Origin: Octopus vulgaris
Taxonomy: Eukaryota
Length of the DNA stretch: 64,000 bases
Reading direction: 5' to 3'
Assembly (NCBI GenBank): GCA_951406725.2
Contig: OX597815.1
Location: 154,256,001 to 154,320,000, forward strand
Shown here in pieces: positions 5,704-63,809 of this stretch. The position numbers were made by a program, and so were the translations under genes. Position 1 is the stretch's first letter. Every line of letters starts with the position of its first letter. Below the pieces are notes generated by a model. The model was not told the DNA's origin, searched no databases, and was given only the letters and a program-made list of their open reading frames with translations.

Positions 5704-7697
5704 CAGACAGCAGCATATTCCCTACTGATCAGAAAGGATGTAAACGTGGATCCTACGGTTGTAAAGATCAACTACTCATCAATAAGATGATCTTAGAAGA
5801 TTGTCACAACGACACAAAAACTTATCAATATCCTGGATAGACTATAAAAAGGCTTTTGATAGCCTACCACATAGCTGGATTAAGAAATGCCTAGAAATGT
5901 ATAAGATAGCACCTGTTATGCGAAACTTTTTTTTTGTCTGTAAGTATGAGATCGTGGAGAACTACACTAACTTTGAACAGTGACAATGAATCTCTAAATG
6001 CTGGTGATGTAAAGATTTCATGTGGCATTTTCCAGGGTGACTCACTATCACCACTCCTTCTGTTTAGCCTTAATACCTCTCTCAAAACTGCTCAATGACG
6101 CGCATTACGGATATAAAATGTTTGATAAAAATATAAATCATCTCATTTACATGGATGATTTAAAGCTCTTTGCAAAAAATGACCAACAACTCAAGGGCTT
6201 ACTAGCGATAGTCAAACAATTCAGCGATGACATCAGAATGCAATTTGGCCTCGATAAGTGTGCAAAAGCTACCTTTATCAAAGGAAAAATGACAGAAACA
6301 TCTAACGTTAACCTTGACCAGCAGAATGTCATAAAAGAATTAGACCCAGCAGAGAACTACAAGTATCTAGGGGTAATTGAAGGAGAAAGAATAAGGCATT
6401 TAGAGATGAAGGAAAGGATCAGGAGAGAATGTTATCGCAGAGTAAGAGCAATACTCAAGACAGAGCTGAATGCGAGAAACAGGATCGAAGCGATCAATGC
6501 ATTAGCCATACCAGTTGTGACTTACAGTTTCAATATCGTTAACTGGTCAATTACTGAAATATGTAATCTTGACAGAAAAATTCGAAAACTGTTGACAATG
6601 CATAGAATGCACCACCCTAAGGCAGACACAGAACGACTTTATCTGCCAAGAAAAGAGGGAGGCCGTGGACTTTTACAACTGGCAATAACAATGAAGATTG
6701 CTACAATTGGCCTAGACACCTACCTGAGGACTGGATGTTAAAACTTGTCTCAAAACATGAAAACAAGAAGGCATCATACTCAGTAACAAAACAGGCAAAG
6801 GAATATCTAAGTGAATTCCGAATACGACAAATTTCGGAATTAGAGATAGACACACAAGAAACAGGCACAGAAAAAGCTAAGCGCATGAAAACCCGTGCTA
6901 AATCTGCAGCTTTAGATATTCTGAATGATAAATGGCAAGAAAAACCTCTCTATGGCAAATACCCAAAGAGAGCAAATAATGCAGATGTTGACAAAGCCCT
7001 GACCCATCAATGGCTAATGGCCTCTGGCTTAAAATCTGAAACAGAGGGGTTTATCATAGCAGCTCAAGATCAATGCCTACCAACAAGAAACTACCAGGCC
7101 AACATATTAAAGATCAGAAGCAGTCCAACGTGTCGTGTATGCCAGCAACAAAATGAAAGCATTGACCATGTGGTCTCCAAGTGCAGTCTTCTAGCGCCTA
7201 CAGAGTATCTCAACAGACACGATAGAGCTGCACAATATATTCACTGGGTAATCTGCAAAAACCTGGATTTGCCCCATGAAAAAAACTGGTGGGAACACAA
7301 ACCACCCCCAGTGCTTGAAAATGACCACATCTCACTCCTCTGGAACTTCACCATTCAAACCGACAGAAAGATAGATACAAATAGGCCAGACATCATATTG
7401 AAAGACTTCAAACAAAGAACATGCCTCCTCATTGATATGACTGTCTCAATCGATATAAACGTATCTGTCAAGACCTACCAAAAACTGAGCAAATATAAAG
7501 ATCTTGAAATAGAAATCAGCAAAATGTGGAACGTGAAGACTAAAACAATACCTGTTGTCATAGGTGCCCTGGGAATGATAGCAAAAGGGGCTGATAGCTA
7601 CCTAACTCAGATACAAGGAAACCCCAAAATGGCAGAAATTCAAAAGATAGTGCTCATGGGAACTGCTCATATCCTACGGAAAATACTTTCTATGTAA
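5704..7697 (+). pseudogene. Frameshifted RT + zinc knuckle + restriction-like endonuclease (ORF pieces 5801-5983, 6022-6741, 6735-7697)
   Basis: IYMDDLKL RT catalytic motif; CRVCQQQNESIDHVVSKC; YLNRHD; PD-(D/E)xK-like RPDIILKD...LIDMT...KLSKYKDL. Confidence 0.93.
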
Positions 7698-24470: not shown

Positions 24471-25000
<530 letters not shown>

Positions 25001-29439: not shown

Positions 29440-29600
29440 ACCTTTTACCTTTTACCTTTTACTTGTTTCAGTCATTTGACTGAGGCCATGCTGGGGCACC
29501 ACCCTGAAGGGTTTTGGTCAAACAAATCAACCCCAGGACTAATTTTTTAAAGCCTGGTACTTATTCTATCAGTCTCTTTTGCTGATCCATTGGAGTTATG
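29440..29600 (-). mobile_element. SINE family A, 3' part
   Basis: Reverse complement of the tail ggtggtgccccagcatggcctcagtcaaatgactgaaacaag followed by (TAAAAGG)n. Confidence 0.85.
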
Positions 29601-29628
29601 TGCTGATCCATTATATATATATAATATA

Positions 29629-29659
<31 letters not shown>

Positions 29660-29799: not shown

Positions 29800-30175
29800 A
29801 GGCATGACTGTGTGATAAGAAGCTTGCTTTTCCATCAGTGTTCAGTCCTACTGTCTGGCAAGTGTCTTCTGTCATAGCCTCAGGTCGACCAATGCCTTGT
29901 GATTCGATTAGGTAGATGGAAAGTGAAAGAAGATATATGTATGTGTGTGTGTGTGTATATGCATGACATGTTTGTCATTGCATCTGTGTTTGGCCTCCTG
30001 CACCGCTTGGAAACCGGTGTTTGTGTATATACGTTTTCGTAACTTAGCGGTTCATTATAAAGTAACCGATAGAATAAGAACTAGAATTAAACAAATAAGT
30101 CCTGTGGTCGATTTATTCGACGGAAGACCTTCAAGGAGGTGCACCAGCATGACCGCTGAAACAAGTAAAAAATAA
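29800..30175 (+). mobile_element. SINE family A, diverged
   Basis: Collinear with 24505-25000. Confidence 0.8.
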
Positions 30176-30184
30176 CAAAATATA

Positions 30185-36899: not shown

Positions 36900-37968
36900 T
36901 TTTCTTCTTTCAAATTTTCTTCCATTTCTTGCCGAGTGTCTTCCCGACTCCTAGGGCAAAGAAACTCATAGTGTATATTGGTAGGCCATTAAACCAAACT
37001 CAGTAGTTCGTTCTTTTTTTTTTTTTTTTTTTTTAAGTTAAATTAAAATTAAAATACATGAGCAGCAACAGTTCTCACATCGACAATGCTCTTCTCAATA
37101 CGTGTGATGTACCAGTTAAGACAATCTTTTGCACTTCTTGCAGGGATGGTAAGCCAGGGATCATTCTCATATAATTTTCGGTTCCCTTCTTGATCATTCC
37201 TAGTGCTCCTACGATCACTGGTATTGTAACCGCCTTGAGATGCCACATTTTCTCAATTTCAATGAGTAGGTCTTTATATTTTCTGAGCTTGTCAAACTCT
37301 TTCGCTGAGATATTATGATCACAGGGGATGCTCATGTCGATCAATAAGCAAACTTTATTGTTTTGGTCTTTCACAACAATATCTGGTTTATTGGCCTTGA
37401 TGGTTCGGTCTGTATGTACTGGAAAGTCCCACAGAATGGTTACATTTTCTCCTTCAGTTACAGCCTCAGGGTGATGATTATACCACTTGTCGGCAGTTTT
37501 GATATTGTAATGCCGACTTATTAGCCAGTGGAGATATTGGCCAACTCTGTCATGTCTTAATTTATACTCCACTGGTGCTAAGACTTTACATCCAGAGATT
37601 AGGTGGTCCACTGTTTCAATCATGTCGTTGCAGAATCGGCATTTTGGGTCTGCTCCATTTTCATCACATTGGCCTGGTAGTTCCGGGTTAATAGGCTTTG
37701 GTCTTGAGCAGCCAGGATGAAACCTTCGCTCTCTGCTTTTAGCCCTGAGCTCCGCAGCCACTGATGGGTTTGCTTCTGGTCAACATCAGCTTGTTTGCTG
37801 CGGGTCACATATTTGCCGTGCAGAGGTTTCTCCTCCCACCTATCAGCCAATTGCTCGTGCGTTTTTTTCATTGCCATCATTTTCACCTTCTTTGCAACAA
37901 TAGTTGCCGTACTTCCCTCGGGTTGTTCAGTTTGGGTATCCTGCACGAGATCAATAGCAAATTTTTTG
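36900..37968 (-). mobile_element. R4/Dong-like element, 5'-truncated (family 1), knuckle + RLE
   Basis: ORF 37075-37761: CRFCNDMIETVDHLISGC, RHD, KPDI...IDMS, KLRKYKDL; (TTA)n flanks. Confidence 0.93.
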
Positions 37969-57475: not shown

Positions 57476-57780
57476 GGAAGCACAATGGCCCAGTGGTTAG
57501 GGCAGCGGACTCGCTGTCGGAGGATCGCGGTTTCAATTCCCAGACCGGACTTTGTGTGTGTTTATTGAGCGAAAACGCCTAAAAACCCGCGAGGCTCCGG
57601 CAAGGGGTGGTGGCGAACTTTCGTCCGAACTTTCTCTCACTCTTTCTTCCTGTTTCTTGGGTAACGCTGTGATGGACTGGCTTCCCATCCAGCTGGGGGA
57701 ACACATACAGCACAGAAACCGAAAAACCGGACCCATGAGTCTGACTAGGCTTGAAAACGGCGCATAAATAAATAAAAAAA
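57476..57780 (+). mobile_element. tRNA-derived SINE family C
   Basis: A box tggcccagtgg, B-box-like ggtttcaattcc, tRNA-like head (possible TCG/Arg anticodon), (TAAA)n/A tail. Confidence 0.8.
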
Positions 57781-58056
57781 TATATATGTAAGTAAAATAA
57801 ATTAAAAAGGGTAATATAATAGGTAAACATATACATATTTTTGAATGTACGCATTTATAAGTATAGCGATACAACAAAAATACAACAAAAAACAAAAAAT
57901 AATAACATAATAGAGAATCCAAAAGTAAACAGGTATATAAGAATTTCATTATTGCACGAATATCTACATATATTTAGAAAAATCCTTAAAATCCTTAAAA
58001 ATGTTTTAGCCCGAAGGCCGCGGCCATGCTGGGGCACCACCGCTGAATGAGCTACA

Positions 58057-61000
58057 CTAGTTTGTGAATCCACCTCTGATACGTGGCACTTGATCAACAA
58101 GGGAGTTCGATGCTGCTGCCCGCATCCGTGTCTCCTGTCGTGAGGTAGGTTCATCTGGGACTCCCAACAAGAAGAGATCCAGTTTAGTTTTAAAGAAACC
58201 CACATCCACACCATGTAAGTCTCTCAGGCATTTAGGGAGGATGTTAAAGAGCTGTGGTCCTCTGAAACCCAAGCTGTTGCAGTATCTGGACCTGTATTTT
58301 GATGGTGATGTTGGAATCCTTGGCACCACGCAGCGGCGCCCGTTCTGCGGTTGGAGTAACTTTGAATGCCAAAGTTTGGGACAAGACCCTCCAGGATTTT
58401 CCAGATGTATATCACTGCATATCTCTCCCGCCTCCGCTCCAGGGAGAAGAGGTTTAATACCTTCAGTCTTTCCCAGTAGCTGACATTTTGCATTGAGACG
58501 ATTTTCTTTGTGTAGCTTCTCTGAGTTGCTTCGAGTTCTGCTGTTTGTTTTATATTGTGTGGTGACCAAAGTTGGGAGCAGTAGTCCAAGCGGCTGAGGA
58601 CAAATGTTTTCCATAGGACCATCAGTGTCTCCTTCTCTCTTGTTCTGAAAGTTCGGAGAATCCATCCAGCTAGCCGTCTGCATTTTATCACCAGATTAGC
58701 AATATGCATTTGGAAAGATGCATCATTGCTCATGTCAATGCCCAGGTCACGCACTGATTTTGACTCAGGGATTGCAATTCTTCCTGGGCCAGTGTATCCA
58801 GTCTTCACGTTATTTACCTTTGTGTGCCAGTAGCGCAGGGCCTGGAACTTACCTGCATTAAACTGCATGTTGTTGTCCTCAGCCCACCTGTATATTGTGT
58901 CCAGCTCATGTTGCAGATGCGCAATATTTTCAGGGTTTTGTATTGCGTGGGAGACTTTTGTGTCATCTGCATAGCTAGCAAGGGTGGTCATCGTAGCAAC
59001 TGAAGGCATGTCTGAAAGGGCCACTATGAACATCAGTGGCCCCAAGACAGTGCCCTGTGGGACACCGCTTGTTATTTGCGTTTCCCTGGAGGTGGCTCCA
59101 TTGCTCACAACTGCCTGTTTTCTGTCTTTTAGGAAGTTGTGCAGCCACTCTCCAAGTTTCCCGCCTATGCCGAGACCACGCAGTTTGTGACAGATCATAC
59201 CATGGTCGACTTTATCAAAGGCTTTTGCAAAGTCAAGATATATTACATCCACATTTGAGCCATTTAGTAGCTGTTTCAACACCCAGTCATAGTGTTGCAG
59301 GAGCTGTGTTAGGCAGCCTCTACCTGGTCGAAATCCATGCTGGGTGTCAGACAGTAAGTCATTTTCTTCAAGGAACATGATTAGTTTCTTACGGACTATT
59401 CGTTCCATGACTTTGCTGATGTGTGAGGTCAGAGAGATAGGCCTATAATTTTTAGCATCTGCTCTGCTACCTCCCTTATGGATAGGGCATATTACCCCCT
59501 CTTTCAGTTTGACTGGGAGCTTACCACTTGCAAGAAAGCTCTGAAAAAGAAGCTGTAGCGGTTTTGCAAGGGCTCGTTTGCACGATTTGAGAAGGATCGC
59601 TGGGAATCCATCAGGTCCAGCAGCTGAGTTTGTGTCAATCTCATCAATGGCTAGTGTGATATCATCTTCGATGTTGATGTACTCAATTTTTGTCTCTTTG
59701 GCCGCTGGTAAAGTGGCAAAGAATTCTTCTGGGTTGTTTACTTGCCTGTGTCCTAGAGGTGTAGTGAACACACTTTGGAACTGTTCGTTCAGTATTTCAC
59801 TTATCCTCGTGGGATTTCCTGTGAGAGAGCCATCTTTTTGGAAGAGAGGTCCTATTCTCTGGTGCACTGTGGCTGTCTCTTTGGCAAACTTAAAGAAAGC
59901 TTTAGGGTTTGATTTTATATTTTCTATTACCCAAGCTTCTTTATCTGCTCTCTCCTTTTCATGGGACTGATGTAGACTTTTCTCAGTTTCCATTAGCATT
60001 CTTTCGAGCCGAGACTTCTCACCACTTTTGGTGTGCTTGCTCAGGCGGTTTGCAATCCTTGTCCGTCGTCTCATAAGAATCCTCCTTTCTCTAGGGATCC
60101 TGTTTTTATTCTTGTGTGTGCTGGCCCTGCACATTGGGACATATTTGTCACATATGGCTTGTATTATGGACATGAAGTGTTTGTGTTTCATGTTTATGTC
60201 CGGTGTGGAGAGACATTCAGGCCAATCCTGTTTGAGGATCTCTTTCTCAATCGACTTCCAGTTGGCTTTATGAAAGTTTAAGTTGGAGAGATGGTGGGTG
60301 CTTCGTATAGGCTGTGTGTCTGCGGGGGCTTTTGTTCCATACATAGACAGCTCTATTATGTTGTGATCCGAGATCATTGTCGGCATCACATTAACATTAT
60401 GGATAATATCCATATTGTTTGTAAAGCAGAGATCCAGTATATTATCTGCCCTTGTTGGTTGCAGAACTATTTGCTCCATGAAAGAGGTATTTGTGAGATG
60501 GAGCAGGGACTCCACCTGTGCCTGCTGATGGTGTGTCATCCCTGGGAGCATCTGCCCCCCAGGCCATCCCACATTGGGGAGGTTAAAGTCACCCATGAAG
60601 AATACACTGTTGTGCTGTTCAAGGTTGGTGAGGACTTCTCCTATTTTTGTTAGGCAGTCTTCAAACATGCCTGAGTGTTTTGGGGCGTCTGGTGGGCGAT
60701 ATGTAGTGCATATGACGATATTCAGTTGTCTTATGTGTACAATTTGAGTTTCACATACTGAGTTTGAATATGACAGCAGGACCTGGGGCGTGAGGTCATC
60801 TCGGATGTACATTGCAACTCCACCATGGCTCCTCCCTTTTCTATCTGTGCATATGACTGCATATTGCGGCATGTGTATTTCTGCATCACCTATATCGGGT
60901 TCAAGATGCGTTTCTGTGAGTGCCATGCATATAGCTTGATTGCATGTCACAAGGTCTCTCAGGAATGAAATTTTCTTTTTACAGTTTCCGCGCAGCAGCC

Positions 61001-61157
61001 CTCCTACATTCAGTAGAAATATTTTTGTGGTGTGTGTGTTGGTGTTGGTGTCTGTGGTGGCCATCCTGCATCTGTTGGAGGTGGCCTTATGTGGTGGTAG
61101 TTCCAGCTTTGTGCTTGTAGCCAGGTCAGCTGCTGAACAATTTTTTGTGCCATGCAC
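58057..61157 (-). CDS. LINE ORF2: AP endonuclease + reverse transcriptase (977 aa as given; 1033 aa if the 1-nt frameshift at 58339-58341 is repaired)
   Basis: APE motifs LNVGGL, LTETHL, YRPP, GDFN, LDL, SDH; RT motifs GPDG, YRPISL, QHGFR, YLDFAKAFD, GVPQG, YADD; C-terminus continues in the frame of ORF 58057-58683. Confidence 0.93.
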
Positions 61158-61905
61158 AAAAAAGACTGCTGTTCAGCTGCCGCCCTTCTCACATCTGGGT
61201 GAAGCTGGCCACCTGTTGGGTTTCCGCGCACCACATCTGCATACCGTCTTTCAGTAGTGGTCAGTGCGCTTTTTTCCCTTCTTTTAACTTTTTGTTTTTG
61301 TTCTCCCTGAGGGAGGGACCTCTGTCTCGCGTCCGTGCGGTTTTGGTAGGGCCTCCGATGTGCAAAGCGACAGTTTGCACCTTCAACGCCGTACCAGCAG
61401 TCCCCCTCAGGTAGAATTTGCAGGTGTTTCTTTCCCTGCCCTTACAGTTTTTGCTGGGGTCCCTCTGCTTTCTCTGGACAGGGCTTCCTTTAGCCTTGAT
61501 TCTGTCACCCTTTACCTCCTGCTTCCCATCAATTCCAGGGTGCCTTTCCTTTCTTGCGGCCATCGCACCTCTTTGGTCTTCAGTTGTGGTGTTGGAAGCT
61601 GGACATGTGTCATCGTTTCCCTGTGTTCCAGGCTTCTCCATTTGGCTCTGGATGCTTTCCTCATCCTTTTGGCCCTCCCTGCTGCCGTCACCTCCCAGGA
61701 TGATGTCCAGGGTGTCCACATGTTGCCTGATTAGAGCGTACGAACGGATAACTTCTCTCTTCTTTCGCTCTATCTGGGCGGTGGTTCTCGAAAAATTGTT
61801 GCTTTTCAGCGCCGCAGCAATAATGTCGTTCGGCGAGTCGTCCTCAGCGATCTTCCAAGCGCGGACGAACAATTGCACCTCTCTCGCAGACCAGTTTCTT
61901 GCCAT
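61010..61905 (-). CDS. LINE ORF1: Myb/SANT-like N-terminus + CCCH finger (298 aa if the 1-nt frameshift at 61402-61406 is repaired)
   Basis: ORF 61261-61905 joins the frame of ORF 61010-61234 on adding one G, giving CKFYLRGDCWYGVEGANCRFAH with no stop until 61010. Confidence 0.8.
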
Positions 61906-61919
61906 TTTCTTCTAGTGAA

Positions 61920-62790
61920 ATATAGGAACAGAGAGAGAGATAGAGAAGGAGAGATATGGAGAGGGAGAAGAGAAAGGAGAAAAGCCAGGGGGGATAGAGA
62001 GAGAGACGAGGGGATTTTCCTGAGAGAAGAGAGAAAGAGAGAAAATAAGAGGGAAAAAAAGAGAAAGGTGAGAGAATGGCAGGTCAGCAGGGGGAGAGTG
62101 AGCGGGATAGAGGTGTAGTAGAAAGGGACAGGGTGGAAAAGTGAGACAAGAGGGTGGACCCTAGGGGGGGCAGGGAGAAGAAAGGCGGAGAGATAAAATG
62201 GAGAGGAAGAGAGAGATGAAATGGAGAGGGAGAGAGAGAGAGGGCAGGATAGAGGTACCAGGGAGTGAAGTAAAGGGACAGAGAGGGTGGTGTGGAGGAA
62301 GGAGACAGAGAGAGGAAAAAAGAGACAGGGGGGTGGTGAGCCTTAGAGGGAACAGGGAGAGGAAAGGTAGGAAGAAAAAAGGGGGAAGAGGAAGAGAGGG
62401 GGCGCAACAAAGTGTAGTAAAGGGACAGGGAGGGTGGTGTAGAGAAAGAAATAAGGGGACAGAAGGGGAAGAGGAAAAGGGGTTTGACCTGTGAAGGAGC
62501 GGAGAGGAAAGAGGCAGAGAGAGGGAGGGGGAGTAACAGAGAGAGAGAGAGAGAAAGAGGGCGGTATATAGATACAAGAGAGAATGAGTGAAGTTGAGGA
62601 ACTGAGAGAGGGGGTGAGGTGAGAGAAAGTTGATCTGAGAGAGAGGCAGAAAGAGAAACGATTGCAGAGGGAGAGAGAGGGAGGAGGGGAGAGTGAGAGC
62701 GGAAATAGAGGGTCTGGTGGATGGGGAGACAGATAAGGTATAAACTGTATGAGAGAGATAGAAATAGAAATGTAAGAAAGAGAGGGAGAG
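61920..62790. repeat. GA-rich low-complexity tract (polypyrimidine on LINE sense strand)
   Basis: Direct. Confidence 0.9.
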
Positions 62791-63052
62791 ATTATAAAGA
62801 TAGAATAGCGCGTATTTTTATATCTTTTTAATTATTATTTTCTGTTTGAAAGAACACTAATGATAACAAATAATAAAAATGTATGAGAGAGATAGAAATA
62901 GAAATGTAAAAAAGAGAAAGAGAGAGTGCGTGGCAGGCACGAAATTATAAAGATTATAAAGATAGAATACCGCGTATTTTTTTATTTTTATATCTTTTTT
63001 TCTTTTTTTTTTTTTAATTATTTTCTGTTTGAAAGAACACTAATGATAACAA
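62746..63052. repeat. Imperfect tandem duplication of a ~130-bp unit
   Basis: tgtatgagagagatagaaatagaaatgtaa...gaaagaacactaatgataacaa at 62746-62870 and 62880-63052. Confidence 0.85.
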
Positions 63053-63809
63053 GATAAATAATATCTTACCTTACCGGCTGACATAGAGTACTTACGTGAT
63101 TCCTTTTTATAAGAAAGGAAGATAGATAGACAAGACAGACCTTTTATATTCCTCCCCAAGCGCACTTTGTAAACAAAAGGGGTTTGAGTTTCGATTTAGC
63201 ACATGCAACAGTTTCACGATACTTTCTATATTTTCCTAAGCGATTTGGTATTAAGCAGCAAATTTTTCAGAGGCTTTTTTCAGAACACGCAGATATACAT
63301 CAAAACGAAAATATCCTTCTCAAAAATACTGTGTCTTGTTGATTCACAGACGAAGAATAAAATTCACTTCGATTTCGGGAAGTAACACACGTGCGTTTTA
63401 ACACGTGTATTCGCGAGTATGTTCTAGTTGCAAATACTACATCAAAAGCGAAAATATTCTTCTCAAATACAGTGACTTGTTGTACTATCACTTATATTCG
63501 CTTTGCAGACAATTTCGCTTCTGATAACATCAATCTCTGGAAGGACTTCTTTAATATTTAGGAGAGACACGTTAACACACTTGTTGTTAGTTCAGCGCCA
63601 TCTTATATGTAGATGTATATGCCATGATCTTATATGCCATCTTAGGTGTAGATGTATAATTAATAAATATTGCTATGGCTAAAACGCGTCCTAAAACTTG
63701 TGTAAATTTATATATGGGCCGACCAAATCCTTGTGAGTGAGTTTGGTTGATGGAAATTGAAAGAAAGCCTTCGTGTAAATATATATCTATATATATATAT
63801 ATATATATA

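Follow-up and report, generated by a model that had tools for sequence, protein, structure and literature searches.

A Myb-like and CCCH zinc-finger ORF1 in octopus CR1-group LINEs found mostly in (TA)n tracts

Described ORF1 types and retroelements with target preference

The ORF1 protein (ORF1p) of LINEs is usually regarded as an RNA chaperone and may also take part in choosing insertion sites. In characterised site-specific LINEs that encode an AP endonuclease (APE), the endonuclease is the main target determinant. Khazina and Weichenrieder reportedly distinguished ORF1 types I-V in CR1-group LINEs. The microsatellite-specific LINEs that Kojima and Fujiwara are said to have described in 2004 share a simple-repeat bias with the octopus elements reported here, but differ in their reverse transcriptase (RT) clade and in that their targeting is ascribed to endonuclease-linked motifs. 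The CR1-group elements in the available part of a survey of 448 elements (Metcalfe and Casane 2014, PMC4120745) resemble the octopus LINEs in having two ORFs, an APE and RT in ORF2, an RT of CR1 type, a tandem-repeat tail, and an ORF1 built of modules, the N-terminal one of which is exchangeable and, in many known subgroups, a PHD finger. According to the same portion of that survey, the ORF1 PHD finger has had no functional study, and its role in targeting has merely been suggested.

Two other groups of elements invite comparison. R2 elements carry an N-terminal c-Myb motif, which the non-site-specific R2-like BLAG elements lack (PMC7650587, excerpt); like the octopus LINEs, R2 elements are non-LTR retrotransposons that have a target preference and a Myb-type domain. 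In R2, that excerpt places the motif in the one RT-containing protein, which also holds CCHH/CCHC fingers and a restriction-like endonuclease, whereas the octopus module lies in a separate ORF1 beside a CCCH finger, in an element with an APE-type ORF2 and a microsatellite target. Naiad Penelope-like elements (PLEs) share the simple-repeat bias and insert at (TA)n without a Myb domain (PMC8557442, excerpt); they belong to another RT class, and their targeting is put down there to endonuclease-linked motifs and not to an ORF1 DNA-binding domain.

A young LINE family and the architecture of its ORF1

The window, i.e., the whole 64,000-nt stretch of DNA analysed, contains a full-length LINE of a family designated A (Table 1), the reference copy of which measures 5,619 nt. 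Family A is young and abundant. Two genomic searches returned 1403 and 2415 first-look candidates, and the 40 scored among the 1403 are all at least 98% identical; mean pairwise substitution is 0.2% over 20 copies compared from ORF1 to the 3' end, both ORFs are intact in six of 20, and 14 of 30 copies are 5'-truncated to the last 1.9 kb or less. ORF2, the start of which overlaps the end of ORF1 by 55 nt, matches Pfam RVT_1 (E 8.7e-30) and Exo_endo_phos_2 (E 3.3e-10), which identifies an APE-type non-LTR retrotransposon. The family A RT is 35-41% identical to the RTs of PHD+RRM and esterase elements. An identity as RTE was rejected, and one as Proto2 appears unlikely, since RT motifs and a tree (built without Proto2 references) point to the CR1 group; the octopus LINE in the accessible part of PMC9115989 is something else, namely an RTE element with a single ORF.

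Just beyond the 5' end of the window copy lie two partial repeats of AAGATGGCG (63596-63640), perhaps the products of abortive 5' joining; the motif itself is presumably YY1-like. Other retroelement fragments in the window (6013-7697, plus strand; 37075-37779, minus strand) encode an RT and a C-terminal 'NRPDI'-type endonuclease and are taken by us to be R4/Dong-like.

Table 1. Features of the family A LINE in the window (positions are those of the window)
Feature	Position	Strand	Remarks
Full-length CR1-group LINE, family A, ~5.6 kb	57983..63604	-	Ends set by comparing 20 copies
5' terminal motif AAGATGGCG	63596..63604	-	At the 5' end of 12/20 copies
5' UTR, ~1.7 kb, low-complexity, pyrimidine-rich on the element strand	61906..63604	-	
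ORF1, frameshifted in the window copy	61010..61905	-	Intact copies 298 aa (P0004 from L005)
Myb/trihelix-like three-helix domain, ORF1 residues 3-72	61690..61899	-	Pfam, AlphaFold, fold searches, dN/dS
CCCH finger C162-x7-C170-x8-C179-x3-H183	61358..61422	-	Cut by the G-run in the window copy
G5 run, ORF1 frameshift	61402..61406	-	G6 in most copies
Conserved region at the C-terminus (RYADVV...QQSFL.MAQKIVQQLTWL), predicted to form a long amphipathic helix	61103..61246	-	
ORF2, AP endonuclease and reverse transcriptase	58057..61064	-	Intact copies 1003 aa
Shortened G-run, frameshifts the ORF2 C-terminus of the window copy	58339..58341	-	Equal loss in 6/20 copies, both subfamilies
3' UTR stem-loop motif	58022..58043	-	Common to families A-C and abundant SINEs
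3' tail, (TTTAAGGA)-type units	57983..58006	-	

In the window copy, ORF1 is split between a first frame (61905 to 61261, minus strand; 214 aa, from MARNWSAREVQLFVRAW to ...TCKFYLRG) and a second one (61441 to 61010, minus strand), which holds the remaining part of the finger and the ORF1 C-terminus. The initial annotation had proposed that one G added to a G5 run restores a continuous ORF1 with a C-x7-C-x8-C-x3-H finger, and natural copies bear this out. Among the 30 top genomic copies, found with a G5 query that favours G5-like copies, the run is G6 in 21 and G5 in eight, and the pattern is unmatched in one; ORF1 is open over 298-300 aa in 16 of the 30, and the finger is present at residue 162 without any repair in 18. 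No such pattern spanned the frame join in 300 codon-order shuffles. Natural intact copies (P0004) were used for all later analyses.

The same annotation had likened the ORF1 N-terminus to Myb/SANT domains, and this likeness is genuine. The window N-terminus scores 21.7 bits (E 2.8e-4) against PF13837 (Myb_DNA-bind_4), below the 27-bit cut-off, which is exceeded by homologous ORF1s (29.3 bits for P0044; 29.5 and 30.1 bits in a further family, E). AlphaFold predicts, for the whole ORF1, three helices, one finger, and one long helix joined by linkers of low confidence; the helices of the head span residues 7-20, 25-35, and 42-71 (pLDDT 81-97) and correspond to a helix-turn-helix/Myb-like fold. 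In a fold search, the 50 best rows are mostly Myb, SANT, and trihelix chains, with middling best Z scores of 7.0-7.7, and SANT and Myb rows are tied; the matches include GT-1 (Z 7.7, rmsd 9.9, 76 aligned), DNAJC2 SANT (Z 7.5, rmsd 4.7, 68 aligned), RAD MYB (Z 7.4, rmsd 2.8, 58 aligned), and Zeste (Z 6.2, rmsd 2.1, 57 aligned). Foldseek gave no match at E<=0.001. The head carries a net charge of +1 to +7 in all 12 copies examined, and conservation reaches at least 90% for R40, R47, and K48, which lie in helix 3 or close to it. By analogy with the known domain family, the head probably binds DNA.

The finger (approx. residues 160-185, pLDDT 83) passes the zf-CCCH cut-off of 20.5 as a 35-aa piece (27.3 bits) but scores 18.9 within the whole protein; its four ligands are the same in all 19 aligned ORF1s, and its spacing is unlike the C-x8-C-x5-C-x3-H of the Pfam zf-CCCH description. 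The C-terminal helix spans residues 237-271 (pLDDT 81-91). RRM, CCHC, Tnp22, PHD, and esterase domains had no Pfam match in the intact ORF1, searched to E 10, and this ORF1, with its Myb-like head and CCCH finger, falls outside ORF1 types I-IV, which are marked by such domains. Identity between families is 54% in the Myb block, 62% in the CCCH block, and 59% in the C-terminal helix versus 18-20% in the linkers. A dN/dS comparison of ORF1 copies, proposed in the initial annotation, gave within-family values of 0.18 for the Myb block and 0.16 for the C-terminal helix versus 0.54-0.86 for the linkers (the pairs are not independent); for the CCCH block the ratio was 0.73 within families, where changes are few, and 0.08 between them. 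These ratios indicate that the folded blocks of ORF1 are under purifying selection and the linkers much less so. The Myb-like plus CCCH architecture is almost certainly real. Judging from the respective domain families, RNA of the element itself is the likely ligand of the finger, and oligomerisation the likely role of the C-terminal helix.

Related families and the origin of the Myb-like head

An ORF1 search of 1.84 billion representatives yielded 40 matches, several of them full-length, which are 32-38% identical and keep the three blocks. The sources of the closest proteins give Octopus vulgaris as their label. For three of the matching proteins (P0010, P0012, P0018), matches in this genome do not exceed 54%, and these proteins therefore probably belong to other species. 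Six predicted octopus-type proteins (P0007, P0013, P0015, P0016, P0028, P0031) contain an exon-like piece of ORF1 (approx. residues 84-133), which is either a cryptic LINE exon or a gene-model error. In the genome itself, at least four families (A-D) carry this ORF1 directly before an APE-RT ORF2; B-D are 39-43% identical to A in ORF1 and 72-81% in RT. A Pfam search of the genome added family E (L246-L286, L327-L356; 3044 first-look candidates), which combines a Myb head with four CCCH-type fingers and has an RT approx. 43% identical to that of A; its copies L250, L258, L266, and L267 have internal deletions. The Myb-module ORF1 is thus linked to an APE-RT ORF2 in five families.

The CCCH finger has a wider distribution. 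On metagenome contigs, the closest relatives by ORF2 whose ORF1 can be read have tandem CCCH-type fingers and a short 'SFL' motif. Their head, where present (L059, L062, L064, and L065), is PHD-like, with only L059 passing the Pfam PHD cut-off, and P0035 has a weak PHD match together with a first finger spaced like that of family A (HH probability 94.8); an Atlas search with P0035 led to a zf-CCCH cluster, and the Myb-type ORF1s have no entry there. The L059 ORF1 (positions 3-2750 of that metagenomic relative) comprises 916 aa, with two PHD fingers ahead of the CCCH fingers. More distant ORF2 relatives have PHD+RRM-like or esterase ORF1s. PHD-like heads with multiple CCCH fingers in the relatives indicate that CCCH fingers are clade-wide and that the head is the exchangeable part.

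The RT phylogeny proposed at the outset places the octopus elements on a CR1-group branch separate from classical CR1, although the tree is unrooted, includes one named reference (the bird CR1-like P0050), and was built without L2 and Zenon. A branch with 100/100 support separates every CCCH-type element from bird CR1, esterase, and PHD+RRM elements. The first tree, a quick one with 71 rows, had an uninformative RTE outgroup; later trees dropped this outgroup and 28 other rows and added four of the ten family E rows. Families A-D group with an Argonauta protein (100/100) and family E with PHD-headed elements (97/95), and monophyly of A-E is rejected (p-AU 0.0011 and 0.0033). The heads are nevertheless mutually alike: a profile of A-D finds the family E head with probability 97.5 (E 4.9e-12, 71 columns). 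The sequence comparisons therefore suggest that the Myb module was either swapped between RT lineages or is ancestral and was replaced more than once.

The LINE heads resemble trihelix/PF13837 host proteins (GT-1, Zeste, MSANTD-type) in their three-helix fold with a long third helix. However, family A-E heads are only 9-24% identical to the five host PF13837 proteins (versus 28-33% between the E and A-D heads), and they lack the second and third tryptophans that three of the five Myb-type host proteins of the same genome possess. As to a donor of the module, the five host proteins score only 1.7-7.3 bits with the LINE profile, none was found in a search of proteins of 651-2000 aa (weak evidence), and a sequence search of the PDB gave chance matches only.

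The initial annotation had called the architecture unusual and possibly undescribed. The conserved combination of a Myb-like head with CCCH justifies the first description, but CCCH fingers also occur beyond this ORF1, as the mark of a wider CR1-group branch whose metagenomic members bear PHD-like heads. Myb, SANT, and CCCH gave no hit in the available part of the ORF1 survey (PMC4120745), and its element list, so far as available, includes no cephalopod elements. Similarly, a literature search, covering mostly titles and the beginnings of abstracts, found no Myb or CCCH ORF1 and no (TA)n-targeting CR1-group LINE, though Repbase and Dfam may have these families. With that proviso, the Myb-like plus CCCH ORF1 and the (TA)n preference appear to be new for a CR1-group LINE.

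Insertion in (TA)n tracts and the possible role of ORF1

Flanks were scored as TA-rich when the 30 nt beside the junction contained at least eight TA steps, a threshold chosen after family A flanks had been viewed. By this score, 26 of 30 family A flanks are TA-rich at the 3' end and 11 of 14 at 5' truncation points, against a background of 92/2133 in the window and 236/1080 farther out in the same loci. Tracts of (TA)n type surround the copies, the compound pattern on the left often matches that on the right, and (TA)n directly precedes 11 of the 12 5' ends that bear AAGATGGCG; the exception is the window copy, which lies outside a TA tract (score 6). Flanks are also TA-rich in 12 of 13 older family A copies (88-99% 3'-end identity; seven of 20 loci had no usable 3' end), in 10 of 12 copies of families B and C (one being (TAA)n), and, in family E, in 21 of 30 at the 3' end (70%) and 10 of 24 at the 5' end (42%). 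In a control RTE-type LINE, the counts are 1/30 and 1/26 at the 3' and 5' ends, respectively (Fisher versus A, p 1.9e-11 and 1.7e-6), and in an unrelated SINE 2/30 and 3/30. Families with the Myb-module ORF1 thus lie mostly in (TA)n tracts. The initial annotation had mentioned neither this strong preference nor the second RT lineage that has the Myb module. The window includes a copy of the control SINE (57480-57790, plus strand), an older, tRNA-like element with an (AATA)n tail that is 84-88% identical to other copies.

Another SINE shares the stem-loop and tail repeat of family B but has no ORF1 of its own, and only 2 of 30 copies (mean pairwise identity 93.5%) are TA-flanked. On sequence grounds it is likely the partner SINE of these LINEs. 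It has 5435 first-look candidates, an internal (TA)n/(TG)n tract, and, in the window, copies with a TAAAAGAG-type tail at 24800-25000 (plus strand), 29440-29640 (minus strand), and 29990-30180 (plus strand). A short family C 3' fragment (L374:1380-1500, plus strand) lies inside the internal TA tract of this SINE, which shows that even its own passenger is a possible landing site for the LINE.

These observations can be combined in one model, to which we assign a probability of about 0.45. The CCCH finger would bind the element RNA, the C-terminal helix would oligomerise ORF1p, and the basic Myb-like head would help the RNA-protein particle to reach TA-rich DNA; there ORF2 would nick the site and copy the RNA by target-primed reverse transcription. 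RNA binding, DNA binding, oligomerisation, and target-primed reverse transcription are all inferred from known domain families. A contribution of the head to TA targeting is suggested, tentatively, by correlation: two distant RT lineages share both head and target, and the tail-sharing SINE, which lacks ORF1, does not share the target. The middling fold scores, the two missing tryptophans, and the within-family dN/dS of the finger count against the model, as does the presence in every tail of TA steps able to pair with the target.

The last point leads to the most serious alternative, in which the (TA)n bias would result from an ORF2 endonuclease favouring TpA together with pairing between the tail and the nicked target, and the Myb head would do other work, e.g., at the element's own promoter, in general chromatin binding, or as a nucleic-acid chaperone. 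This is quite possible, as the endonuclease is the main determinant in characterised site-specific APE LINEs, the tails finish in TA-containing units, and 3' flank scores exceed 5' scores, which in family E fits tail pairing or extension of the tract during copying. Naiad PLEs, moreover, reach (TA)n without Myb (PMC8557442, excerpt). However, the SINE with the family B tail should then share the target, and age decay is unlikely to explain its low score given that older family A copies are still TA-flanked; the weight of this argument is lessened by doubt about which LINE mobilised the SINE, since an older or different partner may have done so. In addition, the A and E endonucleases are mutually as distant (36% identical) as they are from those of non-Myb relatives (31-38%). 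These relatives come from other genomes that may lack TA tracts, with 0-1 TA-rich 30-mers per locus, which makes them weak controls for targeting.

An extended version of the model with a docking Myb head, amounting to a new ORF1 class, appears unlikely: a captured trihelix-type domain would enable ORF1p, acting on its own RNA in cis, to choose the site, which would not be left to the endonuclease alone; the module would have moved between two distant cephalopod RT lineages, carrying (TA)n targeting with it; and SINEs that borrow only ORF2 would miss the target.

It is improbable that the head is instead a SANT-type reader of proteins or histone tails that replaced a PHD finger as a chromatin tether and does not read DNA sequence. 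Such a role would fit the tie between SANT and Myb in the fold search, the loss of the canonical tryptophans, and the position of the head, which is that of the PHD-like heads of L059, L062, L064, L065, and P0035. Histone-binding SANT domains, however, are typically acidic, whereas the LINE head and, within it, the conserved helix 3 are basic, and its Pfam match is Myb_DNA-bind_4.

Finally, a functional G5/G6 difference, whether through programmed frameshifting or as the mark of a distinct G5 sublineage whose ORF1 product is limited to the Myb part, is very unlikely and was rejected as a regulated feature, for although G5 is present in eight of the top 30 copies, that search was biased toward it, both subfamilies defined by eight shared substitutions among 20 family A copies contain G5 (3/8 and 5/12) as well as the ORF2 G-run loss, loci with a common 3' flank disagree (L039 has G6; L040 and L046 have G5), and short-read contigs of all three runs covering the site (of four runs; contigs drop rare variants) have the longer run. 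The three loci lie on one 232-kb contig (G000:C35) with 3' flanks alike at 97.5-98.6%, and represent duplications or redundant assembly of a single insertion. The occurrence of G5 in both subfamilies and of G6 in the contigs points to homopolymer loss or assembly error; the break in the window copy is of a kind that recurs, may well be an assembly error, and is no mechanism. Of the frameshifted ORF1 that had first appeared unusual, the architecture is so and the frameshift is ordinary.

These LINEs add an ORF1 architecture absent from the available part of the published survey (PMC4120745) and indicate which LINE is the likely partner of an abundant octopus SINE. They make the part of ORF1p in site choice directly testable, because they offer a small folded domain, young intact copies, and a scorable target, with the tail-sharing SINE as a natural control that has no ORF1.
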